From an uncultured Dehalococcoidia bacterium (GTDB lineage: Bacteria > Chloroflexota > Dehalococcoidia > Lucifugimonadales > UBA1123), in NCBI GenBank assembly GCA_964640295.1, contig CAZXFX010000002.1, positions 5,758 through 69,757 on the forward strand: a stretch of 64,000 nt of DNA, in the 5' to 3' direction. The notes under the pieces are model-generated. The model was not told the DNA's origin and did not search any database. It saw nothing but the letters and a program-made list of their open reading frames with translations. The position numbers were made by a program, and so were the translations under genes. Below, one piece after another: positions 352 to 45,192 of the stretch (its first letter is position 1; each line of letters starts with the position of its first letter).

Positions 352-1272
352 GTGATGTCACGTTCCGGAATGGAAAGTCTGAGCAGAACGCATACAAGCG
401 GAGGCGTATCCGCAGGCGTCAGCATTGACGAAGCGTATGATATGTGCGCCCGACTCGCCAAGTCGCACTACGAGAATTTTACTGTCGCCTCTCTATTTCT
501 GCCGTCCGACAGGCGCAGGCACTTCTACGCAATCTACGCTTTTTGCAGGTTCGTTGACGATCTTGGAGACGAGTTCGAGGGAGACAGGCTGGCAGCGCTT
601 GACTATTGGCAGGAGGAGATGGAGTCTTGCTACGGCGGAACTCCGACACACCCGTATATGATGGCGCTCCGCAGCACAATCAGATCGTTCGACATACCGA
701 AGGAGCCTTTCCTGCGACTGATAGAGGCAAACAGGATGGATCAGAGCGTAACTCGGCATCCTACGTTCGCAGACCTGGAGCGCTATTGCAGACACTCCGC
801 CAATCCGGTCGGACATCTGGTACTGTACGTATCCGGCTACCGAGACGAGGAGCGGCAACGCCTGTCTGACTACACCTGCACCGCCCTTCAACTTGCCAAT
901 TTCTGGCAGGATATATCGCGCGATTTCGAGAAGGGGCGGATATATATTCCGGTGGAGGATATGGACACTTTTGGGTATTCGGAACGGGAACTGGCTCGGC
1001 GCGAAGTGACGAACGGCTATCGGAGACTGGTGAAGTTCCAGGTAGAACGGACTCGAAGCCTTTTCCACAAGGGACTGCCGCTCGTTGATATGGTGGATGA
1101 CGATCTGAAGCTGGACATAGCGCTGTTCAGTATGGGCGGCATGAAGATACTGGACAAAATAGAAGGACAGCGCTACGACGTTTTGAGCAAGCGCCCCACG
1201 GTTGGGAAAGGCGGCAAGACTCTTCTTCTGCTCAGGGCGCTGCTGAAGTTGAAGTTGCTGGGCAGAATGTGA
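352..1272 (+). CDS. hpnC: squalene/phytoene synthase family protein, HpnC-like (hydroxysqualene synthase)
   Basis: 306-aa ORF with SHYENFTVASLFLP and the Asp-rich YAFCRFVDDLGDE motif typical of HpnC-type enzymes. It is the first of two tandem paralogs followed by an FAD amine-oxidase gene. The start (GTG 352 or ATG 355) is unresolved. Confidence 0.75.
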   Translation: MMSRSGMESLSRTHTSGGVSAGVSIDEAYDMCARLAKSHYENFTVASLFLPSDRRRHFYAIYAFCRFVDDLGDEFEGDRLAALDYWQEEMESCYGGTPTHPYMMALRSTIRSFDIPKEPFLRLIEANRMDQSVTRHPTFADLERYCRHSANPVGHLVLYVSGYRDEERQRLSDYTCTALQLANFWQDISRDFEKGRIYIPVEDMDTFGYSERELARREVTNGYRRLVKFQVERTRSLFHKGLPLVDMVDDDLKLDIALFSMGGMKILDKIEGQRYDVLSKRPTVGKGGKTLLLLRALLKLKLLGRM

Positions 1273-1281
1273 GGCGGAGAC

Positions 1282-2160
1282 ATGACGAATGGCCTCGATT
1301 ATGCCTATGAGCGTTGCAGGCGCATAGCCAAGGCGGAGGCGAAGAACTTTTACTACGCATTTCGGACTCTCCCGCGCGCCAGGCGGAGAGCCATATACGC
1401 AGTCTATGCGTTTTGCCGTTACTGCGATGATGTCGCGGATGACGACCTGCCGCGCGAAGAGAAGAGAAGGCTGTTTGAACAGATTCGCCATCGCCTTTCA
1501 GATTCCAGTCGCGCTTATGAGGACCCTGTCTTCATGGCGCTGGAAGGTTCTATATCCGACTTCGCGATTCCCCGAATCTACTTCGAGGATGTGGTTCGGG
1601 GGGTGGAGACGGACCTGGACGCCTCCAGTTTCGACACGTTCGATGATTTGCGAGATTACTGCTACCTGGTCGCTTCGGTAGTTGGCCTCATTTGCATTGA
1701 GATTTTCGGATATGACGATCCATCGGCTGTCGAGTACGCTGTTGACCTGGGAATTGCGATGCAGCTTACGAACATCTTGCGCGACGTGAGAGAGGACGCG
1801 GAGAGGGGCCGCATCTACATACCGCTGGAGGACATTCGTCGGTTTGGTTACTCGACGACCGAGTTGATGGATGGGCGAAACAATGAGAGTTTTCGCGCTC
1901 TCATGGATTTTCAGGCGGCGCGCGCCAGACGGTATTTCGACTCCGGCGCGCGTCTCATGCCATTGCTGCGCCGAGAGTCGAGAGCGTGCGCCGCCACCCT
2001 GCATCAGACATACAGTAGAATACTAAATCGCATCGAGGAGTCCGGCTACGATGTCTTTGGCAGGCGAATCGGATTGAGCGCCGGCGAGAAGTTGCTTTTG
2101 GCAGCCAAGTTGTGGGCGACAAGCATGACGCCCGGTCTCGTAATCCGGCGTAATCGGTAA
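1282..2160 (+). CDS. hpnD: squalene/phytoene synthase family protein, HpnD-like (presqualene diphosphate synthase)
   Basis: 292-aa ORF with AKNFYYAFRTLP, YAFCRYCDDVADD and NILRDVREDAERGRIYIP, the two Asp-rich regions of CrtB/HpnD-type enzymes. GGAG-like RBS lies upstream, 9 nt after the hpnC stop. Confidence 0.75.
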   Translation: MTNGLDYAYERCRRIAKAEAKNFYYAFRTLPRARRRAIYAVYAFCRYCDDVADDDLPREEKRRLFEQIRHRLSDSSRAYEDPVFMALEGSISDFAIPRIYFEDVVRGVETDLDASSFDTFDDLRDYCYLVASVVGLICIEIFGYDDPSAVEYAVDLGIAMQLTNILRDVREDAERGRIYIPLEDIRRFGYSTTELMDGRNNESFRALMDFQAARARRYFDSGARLMPLLRRESRACAATLHQTYSRILNRIEESGYDVFGRRIGLSAGEKLLLAAKLWATSMTPGLVIRRNR

Positions 2161-2173
2161 GGAGACCTCTCCG

Positions 2174-3619
2174 GTGTCGAATGGATCGAGAGAGACGAGA
2201 GTCGCGACGCTGGGAGGAGGACTATCGGGCCTTTCGGCGGCGCGCTCGCTCATCGAGATGGGATATAGCGTAACGCTGGTCGAGAAACGCCCGTTTCTCG
2301 GGGGAAGGGCGTTTTCGTTCTATTCTAAAGAGAATGAAACGGAAGTGGACAACGGTCAGCATGTCTATATGGGCTGCTGCATCTACTATATTGATTTTCT
2401 TCGCGCCATTGGCGCATACGACGCCGCGTATCTCCAGGACTCGCTGAAAGCGGAAGTCATCCTCGATGGAAGAAAAGGAACGCTTTCCAGCGCGCCCGCG
2501 CTCGGTCCGTTTCACATGTTCCCGTCATTCCTGAGCTATCCACATCTTGGCGCTGTGGACAAGATACTGGCGGCGTATGGAATGTTGAGAGCGAGATTCG
2601 TCAACAGGCGAAAGAGCATCGCGTCGCTGGACTCCCAGACCTTCTACGATTGGCTGAAAAGCAATCATCAGACCGAAAAGACGATTGAAAACCTTTGGAA
2701 CCTCATAATACTTCCCACATTGAACGACGACGCGCGCCACGTCAACGCGGACATGGCTCTGATGGTGATCCAGGAGGGTTTGCTGAAGCGACCGGAGAGC
2801 GCGGCGATTGGGTATGCGCGAACGGGGCTTGGAACCATCGCGGACGTTCACGCGCGCCGCTTCATCGAAGAGAGCGGCGGTTCTATAATCGCCAGCAAGA
2901 CGGTTCGCTCGCTCATCTTCGATGGCGAAAATGTCGCTGGCGTCCGTCTTGCTGACGGATCGGCGCTGGAAGCGGACGCTTACGTATGCGCGCTTCCCTA
3001 CGACGCTCTTCTCCGCATACTACCTTCCGAAATAGCCTCCGCCCCATTCTTTGCGCCAATCGAGAATATCTCCGCCGCGCCGATTATAACCGCGCATCTC
3101 TGGTACGACCGAAAGGTGATGGATGAGGCGTTCCTCGCTTTTCTGGACAGCCCAATCCAGTGGATATTCAACCACACGCATATACAGGGAGAGGATGACG
3201 GCGCGGGTCAGCGCCTATGCGTTTCGCTGAGCGGCGCGTGGGAGTTCGTAGATCGCTCGAAGAACGACCTGAGGAGGCTGTTTGAAGACGAGATGACGCG
3301 GCTATTCCCTTTGGCGCGCGTCGCCACGCTGGAAAAATCGCTCATAATAAAGCATCCCAAAGCCACGTTCAGGCCTGAGACGGGCGCGGCGACGCGCAGA
3401 CTGTCTCAGGCGACTCCGATCTCAAATCTCTTTCTGGCGGGAGACTGGACGGACACTGGCTGGCCATCCACAATGGAGGGAGCGGTTCGGAGTGGAGTAT
3501 ACGCCGCGCTGGCGGTGTCTGAGAGATTCCCCTCTTTCGGGTTTCGTGGCGTTCTTGACACGTATGGGTATTCAAATCTTCATAAACCATCGCGTACTGA
3601 GAATACCGGGTTTCGTTGA
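2174..3619 (+). CDS. hpnE: FAD-dependent amine oxidase family, HpnE-like hydroxysqualene dehydroxylase
   Basis: 481-aa ORF with an N-terminal dinucleotide-binding GGGLSGLSAA...VTLVEKRPFLGGR motif and C-terminal LFLAGDWT. AAGGAG RBS precedes the GTG start. It lies directly after hpnC-hpnD. Confidence 0.7.
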   Translation: MSNGSRETRVATLGGGLSGLSAARSLIEMGYSVTLVEKRPFLGGRAFSFYSKENETEVDNGQHVYMGCCIYYIDFLRAIGAYDAAYLQDSLKAEVILDGRKGTLSSAPALGPFHMFPSFLSYPHLGAVDKILAAYGMLRARFVNRRKSIASLDSQTFYDWLKSNHQTEKTIENLWNLIILPTLNDDARHVNADMALMVIQEGLLKRPESAAIGYARTGLGTIADVHARRFIEESGGSIIASKTVRSLIFDGENVAGVRLADGSALEADAYVCALPYDALLRILPSEIASAPFFAPIENISAAPIITAHLWYDRKVMDEAFLAFLDSPIQWIFNHTHIQGEDDGAGQRLCVSLSGAWEFVDRSKNDLRRLFEDEMTRLFPLARVATLEKSLIIKHPKATFRPETGAATRRLSQATPISNLFLAGDWTDTGWPSTMEGAVRSGVYAALAVSERFPSFGFRGVLDTYGYSNLHKPSRTENTGFR

Positions 3620-4958: not shown

Positions 4959-6998
4959 CTAGTCAGAGAACGCCGCCGCTACGGTTGCCGATGTCTTGCT
5001 GCTGAGATCGAAGCCTCCGATAGGGATGCTTCTGCCATTGCCGCCATTGTAGCCAGAGTTCTGGCTGCCGCCGGACAGTATCGAATTGATACGATTGAAC
5101 ATTGACGAAGCGCTGTCAATCGTAACCTGATTTATCTCTCCGCGCATGGTGGCGTGATTCTTCAGAAGAAGAGCGGCGGGCTTGTACGAATCGAACTCGC
5201 CGCCATTTATGTTGTTCTCCTTGAAGAACGTCTTCAGTCGCTCAACGATTCGGGGGTTGTTGTTGTCCGAAATAGCGCGCAGGGTGACAGGCTCTCTTAG
5301 CTGCGGCGCATAGGCCTGATTGACCAGCCTGAGATAGAATCCCGGATCGAGGAGGTCTTCCACGTCCGCGTCTCTCACCCTTGTTACTTCAATCCAGTTG
5401 ACCGGCGCACGGTCGGACGCGACCATGACGTCATTGAGCCTGTCTATCTGAGAGCGGCTCTCTTCAGGCACATCCATGAGGACGCCGAGGCTGGAGTAGC
5501 TATCTCCGAGGAGCGATATGAACGTGGGGAGGTTTTCGGGTCCGCCGACAGGTATCACGACCCATCTCGGATCGAGTTTGGGCGCCCCTTCCCCGGAGCA
5601 TATCTCACCGAGGACCTGTAGGTATATCAGGTCGGACGGCGAATTCACGAGGAGGCAGTGCGGCGCGAGGAACAGAGTCTGGACGAGCTGGAAGCCGAGC
5701 GCCATCTGGAGCGGGAAGACCGTGTCATGGCTATTCTCCAAGACATCCTGTCGGACGGTCGTTCCGAGATTGTCCATGTCCTCCACGGTTCTAACGCTGT
5801 TCAGATTGTTCAGGTCAATCATGAACGGGGAGTGGGTGGTATATGCGACTTGGTGCTTGGGAGCGAGCCGCTGGTTGATGAACCTCTGGAAGTCGTACTG
5901 CGCAAGAGCGTGCAGGCTGAGCGCGGGCTCATCCAGCAGGAATATCATGTCGCGGTCTTGTTCTTCCTGTATCTTCTCTATCATCGAGAAATAGACCAGG
6001 AAGCTGAAGAACCACACGAAGCCCTTCGAGCGTTCGTCGAATGGCACAGACACGCGGTGGCGGTCGTTCCAGACACGCACGTGCAGTATGGTGCCGCTGT
6101 TCAACGGCGGCGGGTCGTTGGGGTTGGCTCGTCCGAGATCGAACTGGACCCTCAACTGCTTGTTCTGCTTCCAGAACTCGAATATCTCATCGCTTATGCC
6201 AATTGACGCCGATTCCAATTCCGCCTTCAGGTATTCGAAGTTGGTTTCGTGTTCCAGATCGTCCAGATCGCTCCCGACCATGGAGAGCAACGCCATGAAA
6301 GTCCGGTCGGCATCGTCTATCTCGCTAGGGTTGGACATACGCTTCTTGATGTCTTCGATGGAGATCCGGCCGCGCATCGTGCTGTAGTTGTCGAAATACA
6401 CGAACACAGGGAGATAGCTCTCCAGATGATCCAGCACTATCTGCTGCCGAAGGTCTGTTTCCGGAAGACGGTTCAAGAGAGAGTCCACCGCGTCGTTGGC
6501 GGTCTCTATTGACTGGAGTCGGTCTCGTAGGTCATGCCAGGTTCCTACGGCGGATACATACTGGTGAATCTCCTGGGGCAGGCCGGCAGACTCAATGAGG
6601 TGCTTCACGACCACGCTTTCGTCCATGTCAAACTGCCAGGCGCGCTGGTTCTTGTAATTCTTGGACGCTATCACGCGGCGGGAGCGCAGCACTCCTTCCC
6701 CGTACTTGCTTTCAATCTCATTTACTTCTTCGTCGCTGAGTTCAAACTCCGCGCTCACTACTACGTCAGGCTGTTTTTCGTGGCGTCTCCTGTAGCGCAC
6801 ATAGCCCTTCCTGGGGTAGTCGCTCAGATTGAATTTCCCGCTGGCGCTGTCCACGGGGTTCAGGCGCCTCAGGGCTTGGAGATACGCTGTCTTGCCGGAC
6901 TCATTCTTGCCCACCATGCAAGTAACGTTTTCGAAATCCACCCATCCTGAATCGTCAATGCTTCGGTAGTTCGTCACTCTGGATCTAATCAGCTTCAT
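4959..6998 (-). CDS. ABC-type/AAA_15-like ATPase with C-terminal Toprim-like region (OLD-family or fused PARIS-like architecture)
   Basis: Walker A is GKNESGKT. Other motifs are RSKGFVWFFSF (signature-like), Walker B/D-loop FLLDEPALSLH and H-loop TTHSP. The C-terminal LLVNSPSD...VIPVGGPENL...VLMDVPE resembles a Toprim layout. ATG 6998 is preferred over ORF-track 7094 because AGGAGGA lies just upstream. Confidence 0.65.
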   Translation of the reverse strand: MKLIRSRVTNYRSIDDSGWVDFENVTCMVGKNESGKTAYLQALRRLNPVDSASGKFNLSDYPRKGYVRYRRRHEKQPDVVVSAEFELSDEEVNEIESKYGEGVLRSRRVIASKNYKNQRAWQFDMDESVVVKHLIESAGLPQEIHQYVSAVGTWHDLRDRLQSIETANDAVDSLLNRLPETDLRQQIVLDHLESYLPVFVYFDNYSTMRGRISIEDIKKRMSNPSEIDDADRTFMALLSMVGSDLDDLEHETNFEYLKAELESASIGISDEIFEFWKQNKQLRVQFDLGRANPNDPPPLNSGTILHVRVWNDRHRVSVPFDERSKGFVWFFSFLVYFSMIEKIQEEQDRDMIFLLDEPALSLHALAQYDFQRFINQRLAPKHQVAYTTHSPFMIDLNNLNSVRTVEDMDNLGTTVRQDVLENSHDTVFPLQMALGFQLVQTLFLAPHCLLVNSPSDLIYLQVLGEICSGEGAPKLDPRWVVIPVGGPENLPTFISLLGDSYSSLGVLMDVPEESRSQIDRLNDVMVASDRAPVNWIEVTRVRDADVEDLLDPGFYLRLVNQAYAPQLREPVTLRAISDNNNPRIVERLKTFFKENNINGGEFDSYKPAALLLKNHATMRGEINQVTIDSASSMFNRINSILSGGSQNSGYNGGNGRSIPIGGFDLSSKTSATVAAAFSD

Positions 6999-7297
6999 TT
7001 TTCCTCCTAGACAAAACTTCTGCGCGTCTCCGATATCCAATAATCCGTGTAATGAATTAGCGCGGCGCTTTTCTTCAGGGATTCTTCCTAACAAGGTTTT
7101 AATTCCTTCAGGCGGCGCCCCTGTCCACTGTCATTACAGGCTATCACCTACGCGCTGTTCTTCCGCAAGGAGTTTGTGCGCCTTGTTTTAGACTTGTATG
7201 AAAATTCGCCAACTCCTTTGGCGGCTGGCGGAGAGAAAATTCTCAGGCCAGACGACAGAGTTGGCGAATTGGCATCCACGCCTATTTTGTCAAAACG

Positions 7298-9375: not shown

Positions 9376-10632
9376 CTAAACCAGGTTTTGGCGGTCAACC
9401 CTGTCGCCGGCGAGGAAGACATCCACTACCCGCCTGAGGTCGGACAGATCGTTGAGCGGATTGCCGCTGACGACCAGCGCGTCGGCCTGCTTGCCGGGTT
9501 CGAGAGAGCCGACCAGCGAGTCCATCCAGCAAGAGCGGGCGGCGTCTCGGGTGGCGGACACGATGGCTTCCATGTTGGACATACCGGCCATGGCGTGCGC
9601 CTCTATCTCGGTCTGGAAGTCGCCCATCTGGTAGTATCCCCAGGCCGAGTCGGATCCGGCGGACATCACCACGCCGGCGTCGCGCATACGAGCGAAATGG
9701 TCCATCCTGACTTCGGACACGGCGCGCGCGGCGTCCAGTTCAGCGCGCAGTTCGGCGTCGAGGTCGTCAACGCTTTCAAGTTCGCGCACACGGGCGACGG
9801 AAGCGCCGATTGTGGGATTCACGAAGACGCCGCTTTCGGCGATTCGCTCGGCTATGTCCGGGCGGTAGGCGTCGGAGCCGTCCGCGTCTTTGTGCACGCC
9901 GTGGATGATGGTGTCTATGCCGGCGTCCAGAACGTTCACCATTCCTTGCGAGGAGGCGCAATGGGCGGCGGCGTGTCTGCCAAATTTGTGGGCTTCCTCG
10001 CATATAGCCGTCAGTTCGTCAACATCGAAGGACGGTCTGAACGGATAGCTGGTGCGCGTGCTGCCGCCGGTTGCGGTTATTTTGATGAAGTCGGCCTCCT
10101 CTTTGATGAGTTGTCTGACGGCGGCGCGACATTCATCCACGCCCGTAGCCTGTATGCCGAAGTAGCTGAGGTGGCCACCGATGATGGCCACAGGCCGTCC
10201 GGCCAGAACCAGGCGAGGGGAAGGCAGAATGCCTATTTCCACCGCTTGGCGAAGAGCGAAAGTCGTGCGGTTCTTGGCGCCGCAGTCGCGGACTGTGGTT
10301 ACGCCCGAGAAGAGATGCCTTCGGGCGTTCTGAGCGGCCTGGACGGTTAGAACTTCGTCCGGCAGGGTGACCAGTTCATCCCCCGCCCTTCCGTCGCCGA
10401 TGCCGATGAGATGAACGTGCGAATCCACAAGGCCGGGCAATATGGTGGCGTCGCCGTAGTCGAGTTCATTGACTGGCGCCCCTTCCGGCGCTTGAACAGT
10501 CTCAGATGTTCCTATCTGGCGAATGGTATCACCTTCGAGGAGGATGGCGGCCTGTTCGGCGACAGGACCTCCGTTGCCGTCAATGAGTCTGGCGGCCTTG
10601 AGTATAGTGAATTGAGCGTTGGATTCTGGCAT
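9376..10632 (-). CDS. amidohydrolase family metal-dependent hydrolase (paralog 1)
   Basis: 418-aa ORF with LPGLVDSHVHL (HxH metal motif), ITATGGSTRTSYP and SAGSDS. It is clearly paralogous to ORF 11730-13028. Confidence 0.8.
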   Translation of the reverse strand: MPESNAQFTILKAARLIDGNGGPVAEQAAILLEGDTIRQIGTSETVQAPEGAPVNELDYGDATILPGLVDSHVHLIGIGDGRAGDELVTLPDEVLTVQAAQNARRHLFSGVTTVRDCGAKNRTTFALRQAVEIGILPSPRLVLAGRPVAIIGGHLSYFGIQATGVDECRAAVRQLIKEEADFIKITATGGSTRTSYPFRPSFDVDELTAICEEAHKFGRHAAAHCASSQGMVNVLDAGIDTIIHGVHKDADGSDAYRPDIAERIAESGVFVNPTIGASVARVRELESVDDLDAELRAELDAARAVSEVRMDHFARMRDAGVVMSAGSDSAWGYYQMGDFQTEIEAHAMAGMSNMEAIVSATRDAARSCWMDSLVGSLEPGKQADALVVSGNPLNDLSDLRRVVDVFLAGDRVDRQNLV

Positions 10633-10714
10633 GAGTGTTTCTCCTTATAGCTTGGCGTCGAATACGTCCAGGCCGGTCAAGCGTTTAGACGCCTCTCCAT
10701 CGCATACTCTTCTC

Positions 10715-11053
10715 CTAGTCCGCTACGATGTACTTGTCGGACCATGCCCTATCCTTCAATAGTTTTTCCCTAGCCATTTCAAGATGAATAGTCACGATCT
10801 GCCTGTCAATTTCAATTCTACGTTCATATAACGCGCCGATTACCAATCGCTCAACTTCCTTAGACATGGACTCTGGATCTGTACCTGGATTCTGACCAGC
10901 CACGCTAAAGTGCAGTTGTGAGATCAGCTCAGGCGCAATAAACTCGTCGCCGCTCTCTAACGCTTCCAAGTAGAAATCCAGGTATATTTTGGTAGCCTCC
11001 TCCATCCTTCCCATAAGCATGAGATCCACCGGATCGGGTTTTCTGCTTTTCAC
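10715..11053 (-). CDS. hypothetical small helical protein, partner of the upstream PD-(D/E)XK-like gene
   Basis: 112-aa ORF. Its GTG start lies 1 nt after the stop of ORF 11055-11711, and it sits in the same low-G+C patch. No motif recognised. Confidence 0.45.
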   Translation of the reverse strand: MKSRKPDPVDLMLMGRMEEATKIYLDFYLEALESGDEFIAPELISQLHFSVAGQNPGTDPESMSKEVERLVIGALYERRIEIDRQIVTIHLEMAREKLLKDRAWSDKYIVAD

Positions 11054-11054
11054 G

Positions 11055-11711
11055 TCACACTTCCTCCAGTATCAGACTTGTAAGCTTCACATCAGTAGAT
11101 TCAGCAACTTCAATCATCATCAAAACTGCGTAGTACTTTCTCCTGGGGCTAAGTAGCTTTGTGGCAGCCAATATCTTGAGAAGCTTAATCATGTCATCAC
11201 GCAGTTGAGGCTGTACATTTTTATTCTGACTCGTTGATTTTACCTCGACAAGAGCCGACCGGCCATTATTGCTGTCATGAAACACCATATCAGGCGATAT
11301 TCGCTGTGGACGAATAATTAAGTCCCATTGATATTGATCCTCACAGAACCAGCCGGCCAGCGCCTCCGCAGACCCTGCCATGGCCGAAGTGTTCAGCAAA
11401 GGATATCGACCGGGATAGTAGAGACTACCAAGCCGAATCTGGCCGCGACCGGCCACGGCGCGGCGTTGAAAGAATAGAACCACATCGTTCCAGGGTTCTT
11501 CTGTTACAAACTCTGTGTACTTATCAACATACCACTGGAATCCTGGATTTGCCGTTAGGTCGGCGCTCCATTGCCATCTTTTCGGCGCCTGGAACCATGA
11601 TGGCACATAATGCCTTTTGAGCATAGCAACTGTATGAGTGTCCCTGGTCAACCCAATTTCACGGGGAGTCACAGGATGACGATATTCGGTTACTGACACA
11701 TCTATGATCAA
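11055..11711 (-). CDS. PD-(D/E)XK restriction-endonuclease-fold protein (hypothetical)
   Basis: 218-aa ORF containing ISPDMVFHDSNNGRSALVEVKST, a textbook PD...(D/E)xK arrangement. TTG start has GAGGT 7 nt upstream and lies 18 nt after the stop of amidohydrolase paralog 2. G+C is visibly lower than the flanks. Confidence 0.55.
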   Translation of the reverse strand: MIIDVSVTEYRHPVTPREIGLTRDTHTVAMLKRHYVPSWFQAPKRWQWSADLTANPGFQWYVDKYTEFVTEEPWNDVVLFFQRRAVAGRGQIRLGSLYYPGRYPLLNTSAMAGSAEALAGWFCEDQYQWDLIIRPQRISPDMVFHDSNNGRSALVEVKSTSQNKNVQPQLRDDMIKLLKILAATKLLSPRRKYYAVLMMIEVAESTDVKLTSLILEEV

Positions 11712-11729
11712 TCAGGTTACCTCGTAAAA

Positions 11730-13028
11730 TCATATCACCGCTGGCGTCTGGCGGACGGCAGCCTGAGATTCGTCGGAGTTGCGTTCCAGTTTCTGTCCCG
11801 CGAAGAATACGTCCTCGACGTTCCAGAGCGCGTTGATGTCGGCGGCGGGATTTCCTCTTACGACCAGGACGTCCGCTTCCTTCCCGGGTTCGAGGGTTCC
11901 GACTCTGTCGTCCATGTTCAGCGCCTCCGCCGCCCAACTCGTCACCGACAGGACGCCCTGCAACGGGGTATAGCCGGCGTGAACCAGCAACTCGGTCTCA
12001 TAGACGGTGTTGCCCAGTTTATAGTTGCCCCAGGACGAGTCTGAACCCGTGATTACCTTGAGCCCCATCTCGATCATGCGGCGCGAGTGTTCCATGCGAA
12101 TGTCCATTCCGACGCGGGTATCGTCGAACTGCGCTTGCTCCTGAGGGGTCAAGCCTTCGTCGTCGCGCTTGTGAGCCAGAACCCAGGCGGTGGATCTTCC
12201 CACATGCAGCGTGGGATTAACATACGCTCCCTGCTCCCCGATTCGTTCCGCTATGTCTTCGCGGAAGTTCTGAGTTCCGTCCGGATCCCGGTAATTGCAG
12301 TGAATGATCATGTCCACGCCCGCGTCGAGGGAATTGGCTATTCCCTCGGAACACATCGAGTGGGTGGCGGTCAGTTTGCCGAACTTGCGCGCTTCACTGG
12401 TCACCGCATTGAGTTCGTCCAGATTGAACGATGGCAGAGACGGGTATGAAGTCCTCGTGCTGCCGCCCGTGGCGGTTATCTTGATGTAGTCCGCCCCCTC
12501 TTTGATAAGCTGCCTCGTGAGCGCGCGCGTCTGGTTGGGGCCGGTGACCTCGCCGCCGAAGTAACCCATGTGTCCGCCAATTATGGAGACGGGGCGACCG
12601 CACAGCGTCATGCGAGGACCGATAGTGAGACCGGCGTTGATGGAATCGCGCAGCCTGAACATGGTCACGTTCTTGGGGCCGTTCTCCCGAATGGTGGTTA
12701 CGCCGGAGTAGAGGCTGGCGCGCGCGTTTCTGGCGGCCTGGACGGTGAGGATTTCGTCGGGCAGCAGCGCGAGGTCGTCGCCCATTCGCCCATCTCCGAA
12801 GCCGTTGTGGTGGGTATGGCAGTCCACCATGCCGGGCATGACCGCGCAGCCTGGGTAGTCGCTGGCGTCCACAGAGGCGCCCTCAGGCGCGCGAACGTCT
12901 TGCTGGGGGCCGGCGGCGGCGATTTTGTTTCCATCCAGCAGGATGGCGCCCCGTTCGATTGGCGGACCTCCCTTGGAGTCTATGAGCCAGTCGGCTGTAA
13001 TCAGTTTGAATTGGGCGTTGGCAGGCAT
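11730..13028 (-). CDS. amidohydrolase family metal-dependent hydrolase (paralog 2)
   Basis: 432-aa ORF with MPGMVDCHTH, ITATGGSTRTSYP and TGSDSS. It aligns by eye along its whole length with ORF 9376-10632. Confidence 0.8.
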   Translation of the reverse strand: MPANAQFKLITADWLIDSKGGPPIERGAILLDGNKIAAAGPQQDVRAPEGASVDASDYPGCAVMPGMVDCHTHHNGFGDGRMGDDLALLPDEILTVQAARNARASLYSGVTTIRENGPKNVTMFRLRDSINAGLTIGPRMTLCGRPVSIIGGHMGYFGGEVTGPNQTRALTRQLIKEGADYIKITATGGSTRTSYPSLPSFNLDELNAVTSEARKFGKLTATHSMCSEGIANSLDAGVDMIIHCNYRDPDGTQNFREDIAERIGEQGAYVNPTLHVGRSTAWVLAHKRDDEGLTPQEQAQFDDTRVGMDIRMEHSRRMIEMGLKVITGSDSSWGNYKLGNTVYETELLVHAGYTPLQGVLSVTSWAAEALNMDDRVGTLEPGKEADVLVVRGNPAADINALWNVEDVFFAGQKLERNSDESQAAVRQTPAVI

Positions 13029-24729: not shown

Positions 24730-24895
24730 GTCTATGTAGCGTCCTCCGCTTTGCAGGATAAAGTGTTTACTGAGCGCGATTCTAATTGTTAATCCCCAAT
24801 CTCTTCAAGAGCGCCGGACTTTCGCGCCGCAGATCGGGCATTCTTGACTACGCTTTCGGGCGTATGCTAGTTTTTTCTCATGTTCACAGTCTCAA

Positions 24896-25135
24896 AGGCT
24901 GAGAGTGGGAGTAGTAGGAAGAGGTCTGCCTCAGAGAGTCGGGGACGGTGAGATCCCGATGCGAAAGATCATTCTGAACTCGCCCATGAGCCTTCGTCCT
25001 GAGCCGATGCAGGGGTAGGGGCGGACGGAGTGCGCCGTTATCGCATAATGAGCGTCCGCGTTTAGTGGAAACTAGGGTGGTACCGCGGGTAGATATTTCG
25101 GCCCGTCCCTTGATTGGGGCGGGTTTTCTCGTTTG
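24896..25135 (+). promoter_or_regulatory. T-box leader riboswitch (tRNA-Leu-responsive) with terminator, upstream of leuS
   Basis: AGAGAGTCGGGGACGGTGAGA matches Stem I elements. Candidate specifier CUC (Leu) lies at 24979-24981 in a GAACUCG context. The conserved T-box AGGGUGGUACCGCG is at 25074-25087. A terminator stem GCCCGTCCC/GGGGCGGGT is followed by TTTTCTCGTTT (25101-25135). The 5' boundary is approximate. Confidence 0.8.
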
Positions 25136-25183
25136 AGACGAGACAATTCGCGCTCCGCCGCCAATATGGAGGAACCGTTAGCC

Positions 25184-27652
25184 ATGTCAACCACAGAGCA
25201 GTCTCGCACCGCATACGGGCACAGGGAAATGCAGTCCAAGTGGCAGGATCGCTGGGGAAGGGACGGCATCTACAAGGTGCTCGACGACGATCCAAAACCT
25301 AAGTGGTACGAGCTTCATATGTATCCCTACCCGTCGGGAGACCTGCACATCGGGCACTGGTATGCGATGTCTGGCGCCGATGTCCGCGCCCGATTCATGC
25401 GGATGAAAGGCTACAACGTTCTGCATCCGATGGGGTTCGACGCGTTTGGACTAAACGCCGAAAACGCCGCCATCAACAACGACGTGCACCCCTATCAGTG
25501 GACTATGTCGAACATCGAGAATATGCGTCGCCAGCTCAGATCCATGGGGCCGATGTATGACTGGGACCGCGAGGTCGTCACCTGTACTCCCGACTACTAT
25601 AAGTGGAATCAGTGGTTCTTCCTGCTGCTGTACAAGAACGGATTGGCTTATAGATCGGACGCGCCGGTCAATTGGTGCGTTTCCTGCCAGACGGTGCTCG
25701 CCAACGAGCAGGTGATAGACGGCGAGTGCGAACGATGCGACAGCATGGTCGAACAGAGGAACATGGAGCAGTGGTTCTTCAGGATTACCGAGTACGCTGA
25801 AGAATTGCTGGATAACTCCAAGATGGAGTGGCCGGAGCGCATCAACTCGATGCAGACCAACTGGATTGGACGCTCCGAGGGAGTGGAGATAGAATTCGAC
25901 ATCTCCGAGTATGGGCTGGAACAGGAATCAGTCCGCACGTTCACCACTCGCATAGATACGGTCTATGGGGTGACTTTCATAGCTATCGCCCCCGAGCACC
26001 CTCTGGTTATGCGGCTAACCACAGATGAACGCCGCTCCGAGGTTGAGGAATATATCCGGCAGACGCGGCTCCAAACCGAGATCGAGCGCCTGTCCACTGA
26101 AAAGGAGAAGACGGGCGCGCTCACGGGGGCATACGCCACCAACAAGCTGAATGGAGAGCGAGTCCCGATTCTGGTAGCGGACTATGTTCTGCTGAGCTAT
26201 GGCACCGGCGTCGTCATGGGCGTTCCCGCGCATGACGAACGGGACTTCATCTTCGCCAAGAAGTATGACTTGCCGATCAGGGTCGTCGTGGCGCCGCCCG
26301 ATTGGGACGGTTCCGATCTACAAGAGGCGTACATCCCCGAAGGAACTCAGGTCAACTCCGCGCAGTTCGACGGACTGCCCAGCTCCGAAGGCAAGGAGCG
26401 TATTGCCGACTACATCGAAGAGAATGGGTGGGGGCAGCGCGAGGTAAACTATCGTATGCGCGATTGGCTTATCAGCCGCCAGCGCTATTGGGGCACTCCC
26501 ATACCGGTAGTATATTGCGAACGATGCGGAGAGGTACCGGTGCCCGAATCCGACCTGCCTGTGCTGCTGCCTGAAGACGCGGAGTTCCTGCCCACCGGAG
26601 ACTCGCCGCTGGCTCTGAATGAGGGATTCGTAAACGTGTCTTGCCCCGATTGTGGCGTAACCGCCAAGCGCGAGACCGACACTATGGACACGTTTGTGGA
26701 CTCATCCTGGTATTTTCTGCGCTACGCCAGCCCCAATTTCGAGGACGGCCCGTTCGACCCGGATGTGCTGAACCTCTGGAATCCGGTTGATCAGTACACG
26801 GGAGGCGTCGAGCACGCCGTGATGCACCTGCTTTACTCTCGCTTCTTCGTCAAGGCGCTGCGCGATCTGGGTATGTTGAACTTCGACGAGCCTTTCCTGC
26901 GCCTGCTGAATCAAGGGACGATACTCCATAACGGCCAGAAGATGAGCAAGTCGCGCGGGAACGTGATAGCGCCGGATGACTATGTGAGTGAACTGGGCGC
27001 TGACGTAGTGCGCGCGTATCTGATGTTCATGGGGCCGTGGGAGCGAGGCGGCGACTGGAGCGATGGCGGCATCAACGGTGTAGCCCGCTGGACGAACCGC
27101 GTATGGGACATCTGCAACCGCGACTCGCGCCTTCTGGACGATCTGCCCACTGAGACCGACTCTGTCGCAAACCTGCGTCGGGACCTGCACAAGACTATCC
27201 GTAGAGTTGGGGAAGACATAGAAAGCTTTAAGTTCAATACGGCCATAGCCGCGATGATGGAATTCTCGAACTCGCTCAACCAGGCGTGGGAGCGAAAAGA
27301 TGTTGATTCCGAGGTCTGGAACGAATCGCTAAAGTCCCTGGCCCTTATGCTGTCGCCCATAGCTCCGTTCCTGGCGGAAGAGATATGGGAGCGACTCGGC
27401 CATTCGTACAGCGTTCATCAGCAGAACTGGCCGGACTGGGATCCTGAACTGGCCGCCGACGAGATGATTACGCTGGTCGTTCAGGTAAACGGAAGGCTGC
27501 GCGACCGGATGGAAGTTCCCGCCGACATATCGGAAGAGGACGCGCGCGGAAGGGCGCTGGAGTCTGAGCGCGTCAAGGCGCATACCGAGGGTAAGACGGT
27601 GCGCCGCGTGATCTATGTTCCGGGTCGGCTGGTGAACGTAGTGGCGAGTTGA
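25184..27652 (+). CDS. leuS: leucine--tRNA ligase
   Basis: HIGH-type PSGDLHIGH and a KMSKS motif are present, with class Ia LeuS blocks throughout. ATG 25184 with a GGAGGA RBS is preferred because ORF-track start 25133 lies inside the T-box terminator. Confidence 0.95.
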   Translation: MSTTEQSRTAYGHREMQSKWQDRWGRDGIYKVLDDDPKPKWYELHMYPYPSGDLHIGHWYAMSGADVRARFMRMKGYNVLHPMGFDAFGLNAENAAINNDVHPYQWTMSNIENMRRQLRSMGPMYDWDREVVTCTPDYYKWNQWFFLLLYKNGLAYRSDAPVNWCVSCQTVLANEQVIDGECERCDSMVEQRNMEQWFFRITEYAEELLDNSKMEWPERINSMQTNWIGRSEGVEIEFDISEYGLEQESVRTFTTRIDTVYGVTFIAIAPEHPLVMRLTTDERRSEVEEYIRQTRLQTEIERLSTEKEKTGALTGAYATNKLNGERVPILVADYVLLSYGTGVVMGVPAHDERDFIFAKKYDLPIRVVVAPPDWDGSDLQEAYIPEGTQVNSAQFDGLPSSEGKERIADYIEENGWGQREVNYRMRDWLISRQRYWGTPIPVVYCERCGEVPVPESDLPVLLPEDAEFLPTGDSPLALNEGFVNVSCPDCGVTAKRETDTMDTFVDSSWYFLRYASPNFEDGPFDPDVLNLWNPVDQYTGGVEHAVMHLLYSRFFVKALRDLGMLNFDEPFLRLLNQGTILHNGQKMSKSRGNVIAPDDYVSELGADVVRAYLMFMGPWERGGDWSDGGINGVARWTNRVWDICNRDSRLLDDLPTETDSVANLRRDLHKTIRRVGEDIESFKFNTAIAAMMEFSNSLNQAWERKDVDSEVWNESLKSLALMLSPIAPFLAEEIWERLGHSYSVHQQNWPDWDPELAADEMITLVVQVNGRLRDRMEVPADISEEDARGRALESERVKAHTEGKTVRRVIYVPGRLVNVVAS

Positions 27653-28485
27653 GCTTGGCTGTCTCTAAGAGCGCCTTCGCGAAGTCGCTAATTACTCTCG
27701 CCTCTACGCTGTCGGACTACGTAAGCACAGATTCTGGTGAGTGGGTCATCAAGGGGTTTATAGATACCCGTAAGGATATCTATACAATTTCGTCAGATAC
27801 GAAAGTCGTGTCCAAGATATTGGAAATCCACTTATTTCCAAAGATACTCGCATTCGCTGAGGAGAATCGATTCGAAGTCGTCTTGGCAGACCACCAAAAC
27901 TACTACCCTGATCTGTCATTCGTCTCTAAGATAGACCGAGATGTTAAGTTTGCGGTAGATTTCAAGACAACTTATCGAAATACTAGGAGACCATGGTTGT
28001 GTAACGGTTTCACATTGGGCTCACATGGCAAATATTTTACAGACCGTACCAGCTCTAAGAACATCCAGTTTCCTTATGGATCATACTCGGGACACTTCTG
28101 TTTGGGAATAATCTATGATCGCTTGGAATCCGGCAAAATTGACGAGACTAGATCGTGGCAACTCTCGGAGTTGAACTCTATTGCTTCCGTTATTTCCAAC
28201 TTTCAGTTCTTTGTAGCTGAGAAATGGAGAATCGCAAGCGATAAGAGAGGCTCTGGGAACACGGCGAACATCGGCAGTATTCAGAGAATTGAGGACATCG
28301 CTTCAGGAAATGGTATGTTCGCCAAGCTCGGAGAAGATTGGTTTGACGACTATTGGATGAATTACGGCAAGATTACTATCAGGACTCAGCATGGCGAGAC
28401 CAAGAGAATCACCTCACTGGAAGAGTTTGTCGCCTACCGCGGGGGCGACACGTCTTTGATAATGCCCAGAAATAACTCAGCATGA
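27649..28485 (+). CDS. type II restriction endonuclease, EcoRV family
   Basis: 278-aa ORF alignable by eye to EcoRV (recalled). Matching blocks are SSDTKVVSKILE, QNYYPDLSF plus FAVDFKTTY (the PD...DxK catalytic motif), the GSGNTANIGSI recognition loop, and DYWMNY. TTG start overlaps the leuS TGA (TTGA). Low G+C. Confidence 0.85.
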   Translation: MSLAVSKSAFAKSLITLASTLSDYVSTDSGEWVIKGFIDTRKDIYTISSDTKVVSKILEIHLFPKILAFAEENRFEVVLADHQNYYPDLSFVSKIDRDVKFAVDFKTTYRNTRRPWLCNGFTLGSHGKYFTDRTSSKNIQFPYGSYSGHFCLGIIYDRLESGKIDETRSWQLSELNSIASVISNFQFFVAEKWRIASDKRGSGNTANIGSIQRIEDIASGNGMFAKLGEDWFDDYWMNYGKITIRTQHGETKRITSLEEFVAYRGGDTSLIMPRNNSA

Positions 28486-29417
28486 AGCGCCGCCGCACAG
28501 TCGTACCGCCCATTAAGTGTCAAGGCATCAAAACGAAACTCGTGCCTTGGATCAGGACATTGGTTCCATCGGATTTTGATGGAACATGGGTCGAGCCGTT
28601 TCTGGGTTCGGGTGTAGTGGTTTTCAACATTCTTCCCAAGCGCGCCTTGCTTGCCGATTCCAACCCTCACCTCATCAACTTCTACCGGGCTATTTCTCTC
28701 GGCGCGATTACCCCCGCGTCCACTCGCCGCCATCTTGAGAATGAGGGAGCGGAGCTTCTTCGCTCTGACGGCGAACATTATTACACTGTCAGAGAGCGAT
28801 TTAACCGGATGCATGACCCGCTGGACTTCCTGTTCTTGAATCGAGCTTGCTTCAATGGTCTGATTCGATTCAACCGCAGGGGAGAGTTCAATGTTCCGTT
28901 TTGCAAGAAGCCGAGCAGGTTTTCTAAAGCATACATAACTAAGATATGCAATCAAGTAAAGACAGTCTCGGACATCCTCACAGCGCGCGACTTTATGTTT
29001 GCCGCTCAGGACTTGTCAGAAACTATCAGCATGGCGCAATCAAAGGATCTAATATACTGCGACCCACCCTATATGGGACGCCATACTGATTACTTCAACG
29101 ACTGGGGGGAACGAAACGAGGTCGAACTAGCAGGAATGCTTTCATCCGCACCTTGCCGTTTCATTCTCTCAACTTGGCATAGCAACAGACACCGTAAGAA
29201 TGTATATATAGACCAACTTTGGTCAGAATATCGAGTTCTAACGCATGAGCACTTCTACCACGTTGGCGCTAAAGAAGACAATCGCAATCCAATGCTAGAA
29301 GCCATTGTGATGAATTACGAAGTTGAAGGAGCTATCCAACCTCCGAATGAGACGGTTGTCCAAGCCCGCCTGCTGGAACAGCCCGCGGGGTATTCTTCCA
29401 GTCGCATCAGGTGGTAG
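28482..29417 (+). CDS. DNA N6-adenine methyltransferase, Dam/M.EcoRV family
   Basis: 311-aa ORF with VPPIKCQGIKTKLVPWI, EPFLGSGVVVFN (SAM-binding FxGxG), FLNRACFNGLIRFN and CDPPYMGR (DPPY catalytic motif). ATGA overlap with the endonuclease stop. Confidence 0.88.
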   Translation: MKRRRTVVPPIKCQGIKTKLVPWIRTLVPSDFDGTWVEPFLGSGVVVFNILPKRALLADSNPHLINFYRAISLGAITPASTRRHLENEGAELLRSDGEHYYTVRERFNRMHDPLDFLFLNRACFNGLIRFNRRGEFNVPFCKKPSRFSKAYITKICNQVKTVSDILTARDFMFAAQDLSETISMAQSKDLIYCDPPYMGRHTDYFNDWGERNEVELAGMLSSAPCRFILSTWHSNRHRKNVYIDQLWSEYRVLTHEHFYHVGAKEDNRNPMLEAIVMNYEVEGAIQPPNETVVQARLLEQPAGYSSSRIRW

Positions 29418-29473: not shown

Positions 29474-30016
29474 CTACTCAAATATCTCATTCACTTTCAC
29501 GCTGAACCCGGCCAGGGCCGTTGAGGCCAGCGTGTCTCCTACCACATAAGCGCCGGCTATCTCCAAAACTCCGTCCTTCAGAAGCATGACCGACACGATC
29601 CTGTTCACTGGATCAACTATCCAGTACTCTCTTACCCCGTATTTGGCGTACAGTTCCCTTTTATCCTTCCAGTCGCGCTTAGACGACGACGGCGATAGGA
29701 TTTCCACCACCAGATCTGGCGCTCCCTGAACGTTGGCGGCTGTCCTGATGTGCTCTCGCTCTTTAGATATGAACATGAGATCGGGCTGAACCACTTCGGT
29801 GTCCGAGAACACTATGTCGAACGGAGCGTGAAATACCCAGCCCAGTTCTCGCGTATTCACATACGGATATATCAGCGACACTAGTTTCACGCTTGCCATC
29901 TGATGTTCTTCATTCGGTGAAGCAACCAACATCAACTCTCCATTCAAAAGTTCGTAGCGTTCGCCCTCGGGCGTGTTCAGATAGTCCTCATAGGTATGCT
30001 TGGCTTTCGTAACCAT
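29474..30016 (-). CDS. Uma2 family (DUF820) putative endonuclease
   Basis: 180-aa ORF with YEDYLNTPEGERYELLNGEL, VVQPDLMFIS, GAPDLVVEILSPSS and EYWIVDP, the canonical Uma2 blocks. Confidence 0.85.
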   Translation of the reverse strand: MVTKAKHTYEDYLNTPEGERYELLNGELMLVASPNEEHQMASVKLVSLIYPYVNTRELGWVFHAPFDIVFSDTEVVQPDLMFISKEREHIRTAANVQGAPDLVVEILSPSSSKRDWKDKRELYAKYGVREYWIVDPVNRIVSVMLLKDGVLEIAGAYVVGDTLASTALAGFSVKVNEIFE

Positions 30017-40384: not shown

Positions 40385-41260
40385 ATGTCAGACGATGTAG
40401 AGCAGAAGCAAGTTTGTTACCGCGTTCTCAGCCTGGGGGCTGGAGTTCAAAGTTCTGTATTGGCACTCCTGTTGTCTGAGGAGGACCCTGAACTAGCTAA
40501 ACAAGGCTACAACAAACCGGACATCGCCATCTTCGCGGACACTGGATGGGAGCCTGAGTATGTTTATCGACACTTGGAGTGGCTTGAGGATCAGCTAACC
40601 TTTCCATTGGTTAAAGTTTCTAGCGGCAATATCAAGAAGAATGTGAAGAAAGGTCTCACTCCTTCGGGCCACGAATTCATTGACATTCCCTTTTACCTAG
40701 TGAACGAGAACGGGAAAAAGGGGATGCTGTGGCGACAATGCACAAACCACTACAAGATACGTCCCATTCTCAAGGAAGTCCGGGAATTGGCCGGAGGACA
40801 GCGTGGACGCCCATTTCCGAAGAACCAATACGTCGAAATGTGGCTTGGCATCTCGATGGACGAGGTAACTCGTATGAAACCTAGCCGCGAACCGTGGGTT
40901 GAACATCGCTGGCCTTTGGTAGATATTGGAATGTCTCGTCAGGACTGCATAGATTGGTTTGTTGTAAATCACCCCGGTAGGCGCTTGCCCCGCTCGGCGT
41001 GCGTGATTTGCCCATATCGTTCCGATAAGCACTGGATAGAGCTAAAGCAAAAGGAACCAGACAGCTTTGATGAAGCCGTGAGGTTTGATCGCTGGCTCAG
41101 AAACAGTAGGAAGAATCCTGTTAGAAGAGTAGTAAACGGGCGTCCATATCTCCATGCTTCCCGGCGGCCTCTCAGCAGTGTGATTGCGGAGCGCGAGGCT
41201 GTTGGCATAGACGTAGTGAATCACTTCAATAACGAATGCGAGGGACACTGCGGTGTCTGA
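40385..41260 (+). CDS. phosphoadenosine phosphosulfate (PAPS) reductase family PP-loop protein
   Basis: 291-aa ORF. LSLGAGVQSSVLALLL is a CysH-type PP-loop variant, with FADTGWEPEYVY, QCTNHYKIRPI, WLGISMDEVTR and CVICPYRS following. The C-terminal ECEGHCG is reminiscent of the CysH ECGLH tail. AGGAAA RBS. Lower G+C than the flanks. Confidence 0.75.
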   Translation: MSDDVEQKQVCYRVLSLGAGVQSSVLALLLSEEDPELAKQGYNKPDIAIFADTGWEPEYVYRHLEWLEDQLTFPLVKVSSGNIKKNVKKGLTPSGHEFIDIPFYLVNENGKKGMLWRQCTNHYKIRPILKEVRELAGGQRGRPFPKNQYVEMWLGISMDEVTRMKPSREPWVEHRWPLVDIGMSRQDCIDWFVVNHPGRRLPRSACVICPYRSDKHWIELKQKEPDSFDEAVRFDRWLRNSRKNPVRRVVNGRPYLHASRRPLSSVIAEREAVGIDVVNHFNNECEGHCGV

Positions 41261-44353: not shown

Positions 44354-45192
44354 AAACCCTACTCGGAGAATCGCTCAGAAGAATATGCGCAAATGCTGAG
44401 TACATCGTCTTAGCGGCTCCATACATCAAGGCGGATGCACTATCACGTGTGGTTGATGAAGTGAGCGAAGACGCCTCGCTGACCTGCATAACTCGCTGGC
44501 AAGTAGAAGACATCGCAACCGGGGTTTCGGACTTGGAATGCTACTCCATCATCAGGGAGGTTGAGGGAGAGTTCAGACTCCATCCGCATCTCCATGCCAA
44601 ATACTTTAGGGCAGATGAGCACATCCTGATAGGTTCCGCGAATGTAACGAACTCCGCCTTGGGCTGGGCAGCCGAACCGAATCTTGAGATACTCTGTTCA
44701 CCTGGACCAGACTTTGATGCGGATTCTTTTGAGGCGACGCTAATTGAAGGTTCTCGTGAGATTGGGGACAAGGAATTTTCCCGTTGGCAATCCATTCAAG
44801 CTACGGTTACTCAAGGCGACGAACATGAATTCTCCGCACACAGTTGGTCCCATCTCAACGCATGGCGACCAACGACTCGCGACCCTGCGCACCTACTCTT
44901 GGCCTATCGGGGGTTACATGGGGAAATCGCTTCACCTGACGAACTGGACGCTGTGAAGCGAGACATGGACATTCTTCGGTTACCTCAAGGATTGACATGG
45001 GAGGCTGTTGAGAATCGGATAGCGATAGCCTTCCTGTCCGCTCCTTTTGTACAGTCCGTTTTAACGTTGAGGGATTCCGAAAATACCATCTCACATAGGG
45101 TACTTTCTGAAAAATATGATCTCAGCGTAACAGACGCGCGCAGAGGAGCCGAGACGGTCCATAACTGGTTTGCGTTCTTTCTGTCAGATTGA
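44344..45192 (+). CDS. phospholipase D (HKD) superfamily nuclease-like protein
   Basis: Single HKD-type motif HLHAKYFRADEHILIGSANVTNSAL. GTG 44344 overlaps the upstream TAG (44351-44353) and is preferred over ORF-track ATG 44293, which lies inside the GHKL gene. The C-terminal half is unrecognised. Confidence 0.75.
   Translation: MGVETLLGESLRRICANAEYIVLAAPYIKADALSRVVDEVSEDASLTCITRWQVEDIATGVSDLECYSIIREVEGEFRLHPHLHAKYFRADEHILIGSANVTNSALGWAAEPNLEILCSPGPDFDADSFEATLIEGSREIGDKEFSRWQSIQATVTQGDEHEFSAHSWSHLNAWRPTTRDPAHLLLAYRGLHGEIASPDELDAVKRDMDILRLPQGLTWEAVENRIAIAFLSAPFVQSVLTLRDSENTISHRVLSEKYDLSVTDARRGAETVHNWFAFFLSD

Follow-up and report, generated by a model that had tools for sequence, protein, structure and literature searches.

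We describe a two-gene cassette, encoding a predicted nuclease and a small acidic partner protein, in a 64,000-nucleotide stretch of DNA from an uncultured Dehalococcoidia bacterium (contig CAZXFX010000002.1; the whole stretch is called the window below). The cassette lies at positions 10715-11711 on the minus strand, between two paralogous amidohydrolase genes, and its status as an insert is strongly supported: the same junction is found without it in related DNA, it occupies two further, unrelated kinds of site, and its history appears to be decoupled from that of its flanks. The first-pass annotation of this DNA, made from the letters alone, had proposed a foreign insertion between pre-existing paralogs, and these three observations agree well with that proposal. 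As to what the cassette does, we lean toward the view that it is a single-copy, horizontally mobile, selfish module consisting of a nuclease and its regulator, of the addiction or abortive-defence type. The nuclease/partner family is undescribed, and it exists in both split and fused architectures.

The two host genes frame the cassette closely. The upstream gene (11730-13028, minus strand) encodes a 432-residue amidohydrolase (Pfam Amidohydro_1, E 8e-34), and the downstream gene (9376-10632, minus strand) encodes a 418-residue amidohydrolase (Amidohydro_1, E 4e-44). Both lie outside the cassette and are full-length paralogs, with 50.6% identity over 419 residues and ITATGGSTRTSYP in common. 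From the stop of the upstream gene, an 18-nucleotide (nt) spacer (11712-11729, minus strand), which carries the Shine-Dalgarno-like GAGGT and ends in CTGA, forms the 5' boundary of the insert. The nuclease gene (11055-11711, minus strand; 218 residues) then starts with TTG, 7 nt past the end of GAGGT, and the partner gene (10715-11053, minus strand; 112 residues), which is only 1 nt away from the nuclease stop, starts with GTG. The aligned N-termini of homologues (n = 38 for the nuclease and n = 20 for the partner) back both start codons. The coordinates, the spacings and the full-length paralogy of the flanks had all been read correctly in the first-pass annotation. Its description of an ISPDMVF...ALVEVKST motif in the nuclease was right about the presence of the motif and wrong about its spacing, which is 8 residues (HDSNNGRS), not 12. 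On the far side, 82 nt separate the partner from the downstream amidohydrolase. The first part of this spacer (10685-10714, minus strand) is a remnant of the partner's original C-terminus, and the remainder (10633-10684, minus strand), the 3' boundary region of the insert, contains AAGGAGAAAC, the ribosome-binding site of the downstream gene.

Base composition sets the insert apart. The G+C content of the cassette is 0.476, against 0.611 and 0.617 in the flanks, and G+C at third codon positions (GC3) is 0.48 and 0.54 in the two cassette genes, against 0.76 and 0.72 in the flanking genes. The low G+C noticed earlier thus holds on a quantitative scale, the cassette lying below all 64 non-overlapping 1-kb bins of the window (bin minimum 0.479). 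A dip of 10-15 points relative to the flanks was seen in all 13 distinct related loci compared.

The distribution of the cassette is narrow, and its sites are recurrent. All carriers are metagenome-assembled genomes of Dehalococcoidia, with one copy each (10 loci among 185,579 GTDB species representatives). Three types of site were found. The first, between amidohydrolase paralogs, is that of the window and of the related loci L001/2/13, L003/4/12, L005/14, L020 and L030. The second is the atpA-atpG junction of the operon for F-type ATP synthase (L006/7/17, L008/9/10/18, L011, L015, L016, L019, L021 and L033) and thus accounts for at least eight distinct Dehalococcoidia loci; the literature we searched held nothing relevant on inserts at this junction. 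The third, in L031, lies behind a pair of ABC-exporter genes. Among the source metagenomes are ERZ23500231 for L031 and ERZ25069191 and ERZ28763718 for atp sites. The cassette is always co-oriented with the gene upstream of it, and at the first two types of site its start usually falls 13-33 nt past the stop of that gene. At amidohydrolase sites, sequence comparison finds a motif related to that of the window, GGAGTnATCTGA, in the upstream spacer; at atp sites, a conserved GG(G/A)TA(T/C)AATCTGA stands immediately 5' of the nuclease ATG, 12-14 nt before the start (for example, L019 5988-6000). The latter motif can be read either as a Shine-Dalgarno-like GGGT/AGGT or as a TATAAT -10 box, which would give a near-leaderless transcript. 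Of additional note, the atpA-atpG junction of some genomes holds an extra small gene upstream of the nuclease (L011 7535-7918; L033 4517-4918; L008 7548-7955). It belongs to the PaREP1 family and bears a faint resemblance to HEPN (Pfam E 2e-5, narrowly above threshold), and the L008 region aligns to the L011 gene at just 45-65% nucleotide identity. Small selfish genes seem to gather at this junction.

The amidohydrolase site also exists without the cassette. As the first-pass annotation had suggested, related DNA was checked for paralogs that adjoin each other without the insert, and three metagenomic loci (L022, L023 and L024) proved to have this arrangement, their amidohydrolase orthologues being 70-80% identical to those of the window. 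Orthologues of the upstream amidohydrolase thus flank filled as well as empty sites. The spacers at the empty sites are 33 or 191 nt long, and in the tree of flanking genes L022, which is empty, branches among lineages that are filled. We considered whether the empty sites could be deletion scars; neither blastn nor tblastx found any trace of the cassette in the spacers of L022 and L023, and we rejected this explanation. An origin from a phage was likewise rejected: no relative was found on viral contigs in IMG/VR, and neither protein matched PHROG.

Comparison of the cassette with its flanks points to separate histories. Between L008 and L011, the atp flanks are 98-100% identical, with a synonymous divergence (dS) of 0.06-0.07, whereas the nuclease has a dS of 0.27 and the partner one of 0.41. 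The divergent zone runs exactly from the atpA stop to the atpG start, and inside it is mosaic, blocks of 99-100% identity standing beside blocks of 74-85%. At L005, the flanks are nearest to those of the window and L001 (0.88) and the nuclease is nearest to that of L003 (0.77); between L020 and L030, flank identity is 0.87 and nuclease identity 0.56. In the nuclease tree, the copies from amidohydrolase sites fall into two separate clades. Taken together, these sequence comparisons indicate that the history of the cassette is decoupled from that of its flanks and that the cassette is mobile. The identical cassettes of L003 and L004 could also have been taken for a recent sweep; this is unconvincing, as the mismatch-free tract of ~1.2 kb lies within patchy divergence of ~1.5%.

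These results bear on the possibility that the cassette serves its host as a vertically inherited operon component, for example, as an RNA or DNA nuclease that processes polycistronic transcripts or as a repair nuclease. A metabolic four-gene operon was indeed suggested by the first three contexts seen, and the first-pass annotation had named such an operon as the finding that would speak against its own proposal. The four-gene amidohydrolase arrangement is kept in at least six distinct genomes, with flanks that are 76-88% identical, the genes are always oriented as in an operon with very short spacers, and both cassette genes appear to be under strong purifying selection. The atp and ABC-exporter contexts and the empty alleles nevertheless exclude a component of a conserved metabolic operon. 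A host-serving role in general is highly unlikely, because the three host contexts are unrelated and empty alleles exist; it also sits poorly with fewer than a dozen carriers among all the species representatives, with a G+C content that stays foreign, with a dS that is 4-6 times as high in the cassette as in its flanks when two close genomes are compared, and with the direct-repeat footprints described below.

The 218-residue protein is predicted to have a PD-(D/E)XK nuclease fold with an intact active site, because its model is confident, its structural matches are dominated by nucleases, and the residues E116, D141, E156 and K158 are conserved. The first-pass annotation had supposed this fold from the motif, and the structure check now supports it. 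The AlphaFold2 model (predicted local distance difference test score, pLDDT, 91; predicted template modelling score, pTM, 0.86) has an alpha-beta-beta-beta-alpha-beta core at residues 108-217, made of helix 108-127, strands 130-133, 142-146 and 151-160, helix 167-187 and strand 193-202, and N-terminal strands join this core. The model thus combines the core fold of the superfamily with its catalytic signature, a glutamate on the first helix, an aspartate at the second strand and (D/E)xK on the third. In an alignment of 38 close homologues (alignment A1), E116, E156 and K158 never vary and D141 is kept in at least 90% of the sequences; 36 distant relatives all have E116, R134 and D141, with K158 conserved to at least 90%, and the middle acidic residue of the motif is E or Q in some of them. 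Foldseek searches of PDB and BFVD with the model returned top matches dominated by PD-(D/E)XK nucleases, including the Cas4-like ACE1, the nuclease domain of AdnA, Hjc, XisH, HincII, RecB-family phage exonucleases and VRR-NUC. The E-values of these matches are weak, from 5e-4 to 1e-1 (best about 1e-3 in PDB and 5e-4 in BFVD), with TM-scores of about 0.2-0.47, and no close structural neighbour was found by Foldseek. From the fold and the active site, it would be reasonable for the protein to be an active nuclease. Its isoelectric point (pI) is 8.6.

By sequence, the family stands apart. A search of 5.8 billion clustered proteins gave 45 relatives of the nuclease, all without a Pfam match, and 17 of the partner; a profile search of 1.84 billion representatives gave only about 100 proteins at E < 1e-3. 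Among the relatives of either protein, none carries a functional name, and three carry only "hypothetical protein" (JGI). No model of Pfam or NCBIfam matched the nuclease or the partner at its curated threshold, the sole match of the nuclease being a sub-threshold one to RE_TdeIII (E 0.014, gathering score unreached), and none of the 36 sampled distant relatives has a significant Pfam match. PADLOC assigned neither protein to a family. Profiles likewise recovered no solved structure related by sequence.

The partner is a different kind of protein. Its AlphaFold2 model (pLDDT 90) is all-helical and TPR-like, with five helices, a short N-terminal one followed by four long ones, and no significant structural match to it was found. 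The protein is acidic (pI 4.9), with a charge of -8.8 over residues 1-92 and a short basic tail. With ratios of nonsynonymous to synonymous substitution (dN/dS) of 0.07-0.28 for the partner and 0.10-0.22 for the nuclease, both genes are under purifying selection. The partner of the window, compared with its relatives, appears to have lost about 10 residues of its basic tail, because the in-frame sequence EKSMRWRGV, followed by a stop codon, after its premature TAG matches the ...REKSTRWKGV of their C-termini; the TAG itself is absent from the relatives.

The pairing of the two genes is obligatory. As the first-pass annotation had recommended, co-occurrence was scanned, and the partner lies directly downstream of the close-family nuclease in 14 of 14 distinct loci and also in L033, where the nuclease is frameshifted; the distance from nuclease stop to partner start is usually 1 nt in the loci inspected. 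Two loci carry two tandem, diverged copies of the partner behind a single nuclease (L015 6662-7337 and L020 6653-7419). In L033 (5001-5658), a +1 frameshift, caused by an extra G after the ExK motif, splits the nuclease gene and the partner gene is intact; the same frameshift is present in L034 (470-991), an independent second sample. Several distant relatives of 340-366 residues are single proteins with an N-terminal nuclease domain and a C-terminal extension. When profiles are compared, these extensions match the partner (hhalign probability 80%, E 1.3e-5, 64 columns), the match centring on a common [G/x]D-x-[FY]-[IL] helix; comparison of single sequences of the fused C-termini with the partner gives weak matches (E 0.001-0.008), and the profile-profile comparison was needed. 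Since the two are fused in distant relatives, nuclease and partner would act together physically. The fusion does not tell whether the partner inhibits, senses or targets.

At a few loci, the insertion has left a footprint. In L031, the ABC gene's 3' end, stop codon included, occurs as a perfect direct repeat of 48 nt (5765-5812 and 7226-7273), and between the two copies lie the cassette, a leader of 188 nt and a trailer of 195 nt. In L011, the perfect repeat on either side of the cassette is 28 nt long and consists of the final 2 nt before atpG and the first 26 nt of atpG. For both repeats, p = 0 in 200 shuffles. L033 has a duplicate of the atpG 5' end upstream of the nuclease, and in L019 a degraded copy of an atpG start follows the partner (p 0.003), its type being that of L008/L011 rather than that of L019 itself, with the resident atpG ~125 nt past it. 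The other 12 loci tested have no significant flanking repeat. Because the repeats are long and variable in length, they do not fit a transposase with a fixed stagger; they would fit a single crossover, or a site-specific exchange, with DNA that already carried the gene end. Two further candidate footprints were set aside. In the spacer that follows the partner, a candidate copy of the upstream amidohydrolase's 3' end (27 nt, 74%) is not significant in the window (p 0.06) and is absent from L001, L003 and L005 (p 0.2-0.8), and the resemblance of downstream spacers at amidohydrolase sites to fossils of the atpG 5' end (ATGCCAAG...AAGG) is not significant (p 0.08-0.25).

The footprints bear on the main rival to a selfish addiction or defence module, namely a homing-type element, in which the nuclease would cut a cassette-free junction, the partner serving as its cofactor or specificity subunit, and repair from a filled allele would copy the cassette in. 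We consider this possible, though doubtful. Homing explains the fixed intergenic sites between conserved genes, the coexistence of filled and empty alleles, the empty L022 allele nested among filled ones, the disagreement between host and cassette trees, and the replacement of an allele bounded exactly by the flanking genes; one frameshifted copy is expected of a homing cycle, and fusion with the partner in relatives would suit a two-part enzyme. Two features are left unexplained by it, the repeats and the obligatory partner: duplications on either side are not left behind by homing, in contrast to the perfect 28-nt and 48-nt repeats seen here, and homing enzymes normally need no obligatory acidic partner. 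Nearly all copies are moreover intact and under apparent purifying selection, and neither a target sequence shared by the three site types nor a sequence relation to any solved structure was found.

In another, similarly doubtful reading, the pair would be a minimal mobile element without transposase or integrase, whose nuclease and partner direct insertion at conserved gene termini, either immediately past a stop codon or where a start codon lies. Such an element would ride essential operons such as atp and leave long gene-end duplications. Were this true, it would represent a nuclease-driven homing to operons that differs both from transposition and from the homing of introns or inteins. In the window, no terminal inverted repeats or attC-like site were found, only short, weak inverted repeats at 10500-11900, and in an integron-cassette test of the window no integrase was found among the genes neighbouring the cassette.

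Based on these findings, we propose a scheme for the selfish nuclease-regulator module that we favour. The module would insert just past the stop codon of a co-oriented host gene and would be expressed by read-through transcription of the host operon. We favour read-through because no promoter or terminator separates the cassette from the host genes in the window: no promoter-like site was detected between the upstream amidohydrolase and the nuclease start, the only matches being weak ones (9/12) inside the nuclease gene, and no terminator-like site was found on the minus strand between the two amidohydrolases. The first gene would supply a PD-(D/E)XK endonuclease, and the second, translationally coupled to it, an acidic helical protein that may bind the nuclease and whose most likely role would be to restrain or regulate it, possibly as an inhibitor. 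The opposite charges of the two proteins and their fusion in relatives are indirect signs of such binding. The pair could then persist as a nuclease-inhibitor module of the addiction or abortive-defence type, with a putatively toxic nuclease, and could spread among Dehalococcoidia by recombination at highly conserved gene termini.

Several observations lead us to favour a selfish nuclease with a restraining partner. The partner is obligatory, acidic, sometimes duplicated, and kept after the nuclease has decayed. Both genes are conserved though the element is single-copy and has no mobility gene. In addition, the window has at leuS an EcoRV-like pair, a selfish nuclease module of textbook type that is similarly placed. 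The tight coupling of the genes, their 100% co-occurrence, the acidic nature of the partner, the duplicated partners, and the frameshifted nuclease with its intact partner would all suit an identity like that of toxin-antitoxin pairs.

Other observations weigh against such a module. Neither protein matches a known toxin-antitoxin, immunity or defence profile; no promoter was detected directly upstream of the cassette, unlike in classic type II toxin-antitoxin pairs; and the partner has no helix-turn-helix, ribbon-helix-helix or other recognisable DNA-binding domain. A fusion of nuclease and inhibitor would be unusual, though fused toxin-antitoxin proteins are known. The cassette contains no mobility gene, and direct repeats occur in just 2 of 14 distinct loci, with degraded or duplicated atpG starts in 2 more. 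Most of the trees are neighbour-joining trees without support values, and many dS values are saturated. We therefore do not regard a toxin-antitoxin, nuclease-immunity or defence identity of the pair, which the first-pass annotation had raised, as established.

A dedicated anti-phage defence system, in which the partner is a sensor or regulator that holds off a nuclease effector and releases it on infection, is an unlikely alternative that draws mainly on distant relatives. These occur in defence-like or mobile contexts, beside a PLD protein and an SNF2 helicase in L028 and beside an McrB-like ATPase and a serine recombinase in L025, and the fused architecture is like that of single-chain autoinhibited effectors; the window holds other defence genes as well. 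Against this, the close family is never found in a defence island, always within housekeeping operons, no PADLOC match was obtained, and the contexts of distant relatives examined number only three. The absence from IMG/VR viral contigs and PHROGs is neutral here. In L025 (4424-8050), the fused relative P0163 (349 residues) lies 1 kb from the large serine recombinase, a DUF2924 protein and the McrB-like ATPase; this single observation recalls the arrangement of XisH/XisI with XisF. In L028 (575-8309), the distant 217-residue relative P0175 follows the PLD-like protein and the SNF2-type helicase and overlaps by 4 nt a gene for 226 residues whose family was not recognised; the latter may be a longer analogue of the partner.

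Other genes of the window deserve description. A T-box leader (24892-25113) precedes leuS (25133-27652), and a gene for an EcoRV-family endonuclease (27649-28485; Pfam E 1e-117) overlaps the final 4 nt of leuS; a D12-class adenine methyltransferase gene (28482-29417) comes next. This restriction-modification pair has a G+C content of ~0.49 and is co-oriented with leuS, a posture that parallels that of the cassette. Adjoining it is a gene for a Uma2-family putative restriction endonuclease (29474-30016, minus strand; Pfam E 1e-34; PADLOC candidate PDC-S03). A 711-residue OLD/AriA-like ABC-type ATPase (4959-7094, minus strand) is encoded 3.6 kb from the cassette (PADLOC AriA 1e-21 and Old 2e-18; Pfam AAA_15), and no partner gene was identified for it. 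A candidate defence island seems to lie at 40385-45192, where G+C is low (0.48-0.53) and four genes in the same orientation have defence-like profiles, those of an SspD-like PAPS reductase, a PbeA-like helicase, an MzaB-like HATPase and a DrmC-like (PLD-type) protein. Unrelated to the cassette, the region 352-3619 holds two squalene/phytoene synthase paralogs and an amine-oxidase-type flavoprotein in a row, an HpnC/HpnD/HpnE-like squalene set.

The cassette is of interest in several respects. A selfish nuclease module would be tolerated between the genes for the alpha and gamma subunits of ATP synthase, in an operon that is among the most conserved in bacteria, and at least three unrelated operon sites have been colonised by the cassette in Dehalococcoidia, an uncultivated and environmentally important class. 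Its filled, empty and decayed alleles offer natural material for study. If it is an addiction or defence module, it would extend the catalogue of such systems and imply that they can depend wholly on transcription of a host operon. If the nuclease recognises gene-terminus sequences, it would offer both a new source of site-specific enzymes and a new route by which operons acquire genes.

Among known systems, the cassette recalls type II toxin-antitoxin and nuclease-immunity pairs, such as colicin E DNase with Im and the toxin-first HigBA, in having two small, tightly coupled genes with the enzyme first, adjacent at every locus scanned. Like the partners in those systems, its partner is small, acidic, always present, sometimes duplicated, and evolves at least as fast as the enzyme; as in those modules, a decayed copy kept the partner, and the whole is horizontally mobile without a mobility gene of its own. 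Unlike them, the cassette gives no match above threshold, in searches of Pfam, NCBIfam and PADLOC, to any family of toxins, antitoxins or immunity proteins, its partner lacks the autoregulating DNA-binding domain of an antitoxin and no promoter was detected directly upstream, it is embedded within essential operons, its nuclease and partner are fused in distant relatives, and it lacks a secretion or delivery domain. Cyanobacterial XisH/XisI, the excision controlling factors of the fdxN element, likewise pair a small nuclease-fold protein with an adjacent protein of ~110 residues; XisH structures (2okf, with a probability of 0.90, and 2inb) are among the Foldseek matches of the nuclease, and in L025 a fused distant relative has a large serine recombinase as a neighbour. 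Unlike XisH/XisI, however, the cassette proteins match neither Pfam family, the fold similarity is weak (query-normalised TM-score 0.26), and no XisI structure is among the listed structural matches of the all-helical partner.

The free-standing homing genes of T-even phages, Seg and Mob, offer another likeness: the nuclease gene is lodged between conserved genes and co-oriented with them, and it is sporadic at homologous sites, with empty alleles and a history at odds with that of its flanks (L005, L020/L030). The cassette differs from them in lying in a cellular chromosome, in having two genes rather than one, in belonging to an unrelated family, and in the long direct repeats that flank it at two loci (28 nt in L011 and 48 nt in L031), whereas homing inserts without flanking duplications. 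In layout, then, the cassette resembles a toxin-antitoxin or nuclease-immunity pair or a free-standing homing gene, and it differs from each in features tested here. Selfish type II restriction-modification units provide the last comparison. They differ in their second gene, no methyltransferase domain being found beside the cassette nuclease, whose neighbours are the 112-residue helical partner and the amidohydrolases; since the partner is not a methyltransferase, any protection that it affords would be by protein binding and not by DNA modification. Like the EcoRV-like pair of the window (27649-29417), however, the cassette joins a PD-(D/E)XK nuclease to a second gene in DNA of low G+C content, and it is co-oriented with, and tightly abuts, a housekeeping gene.

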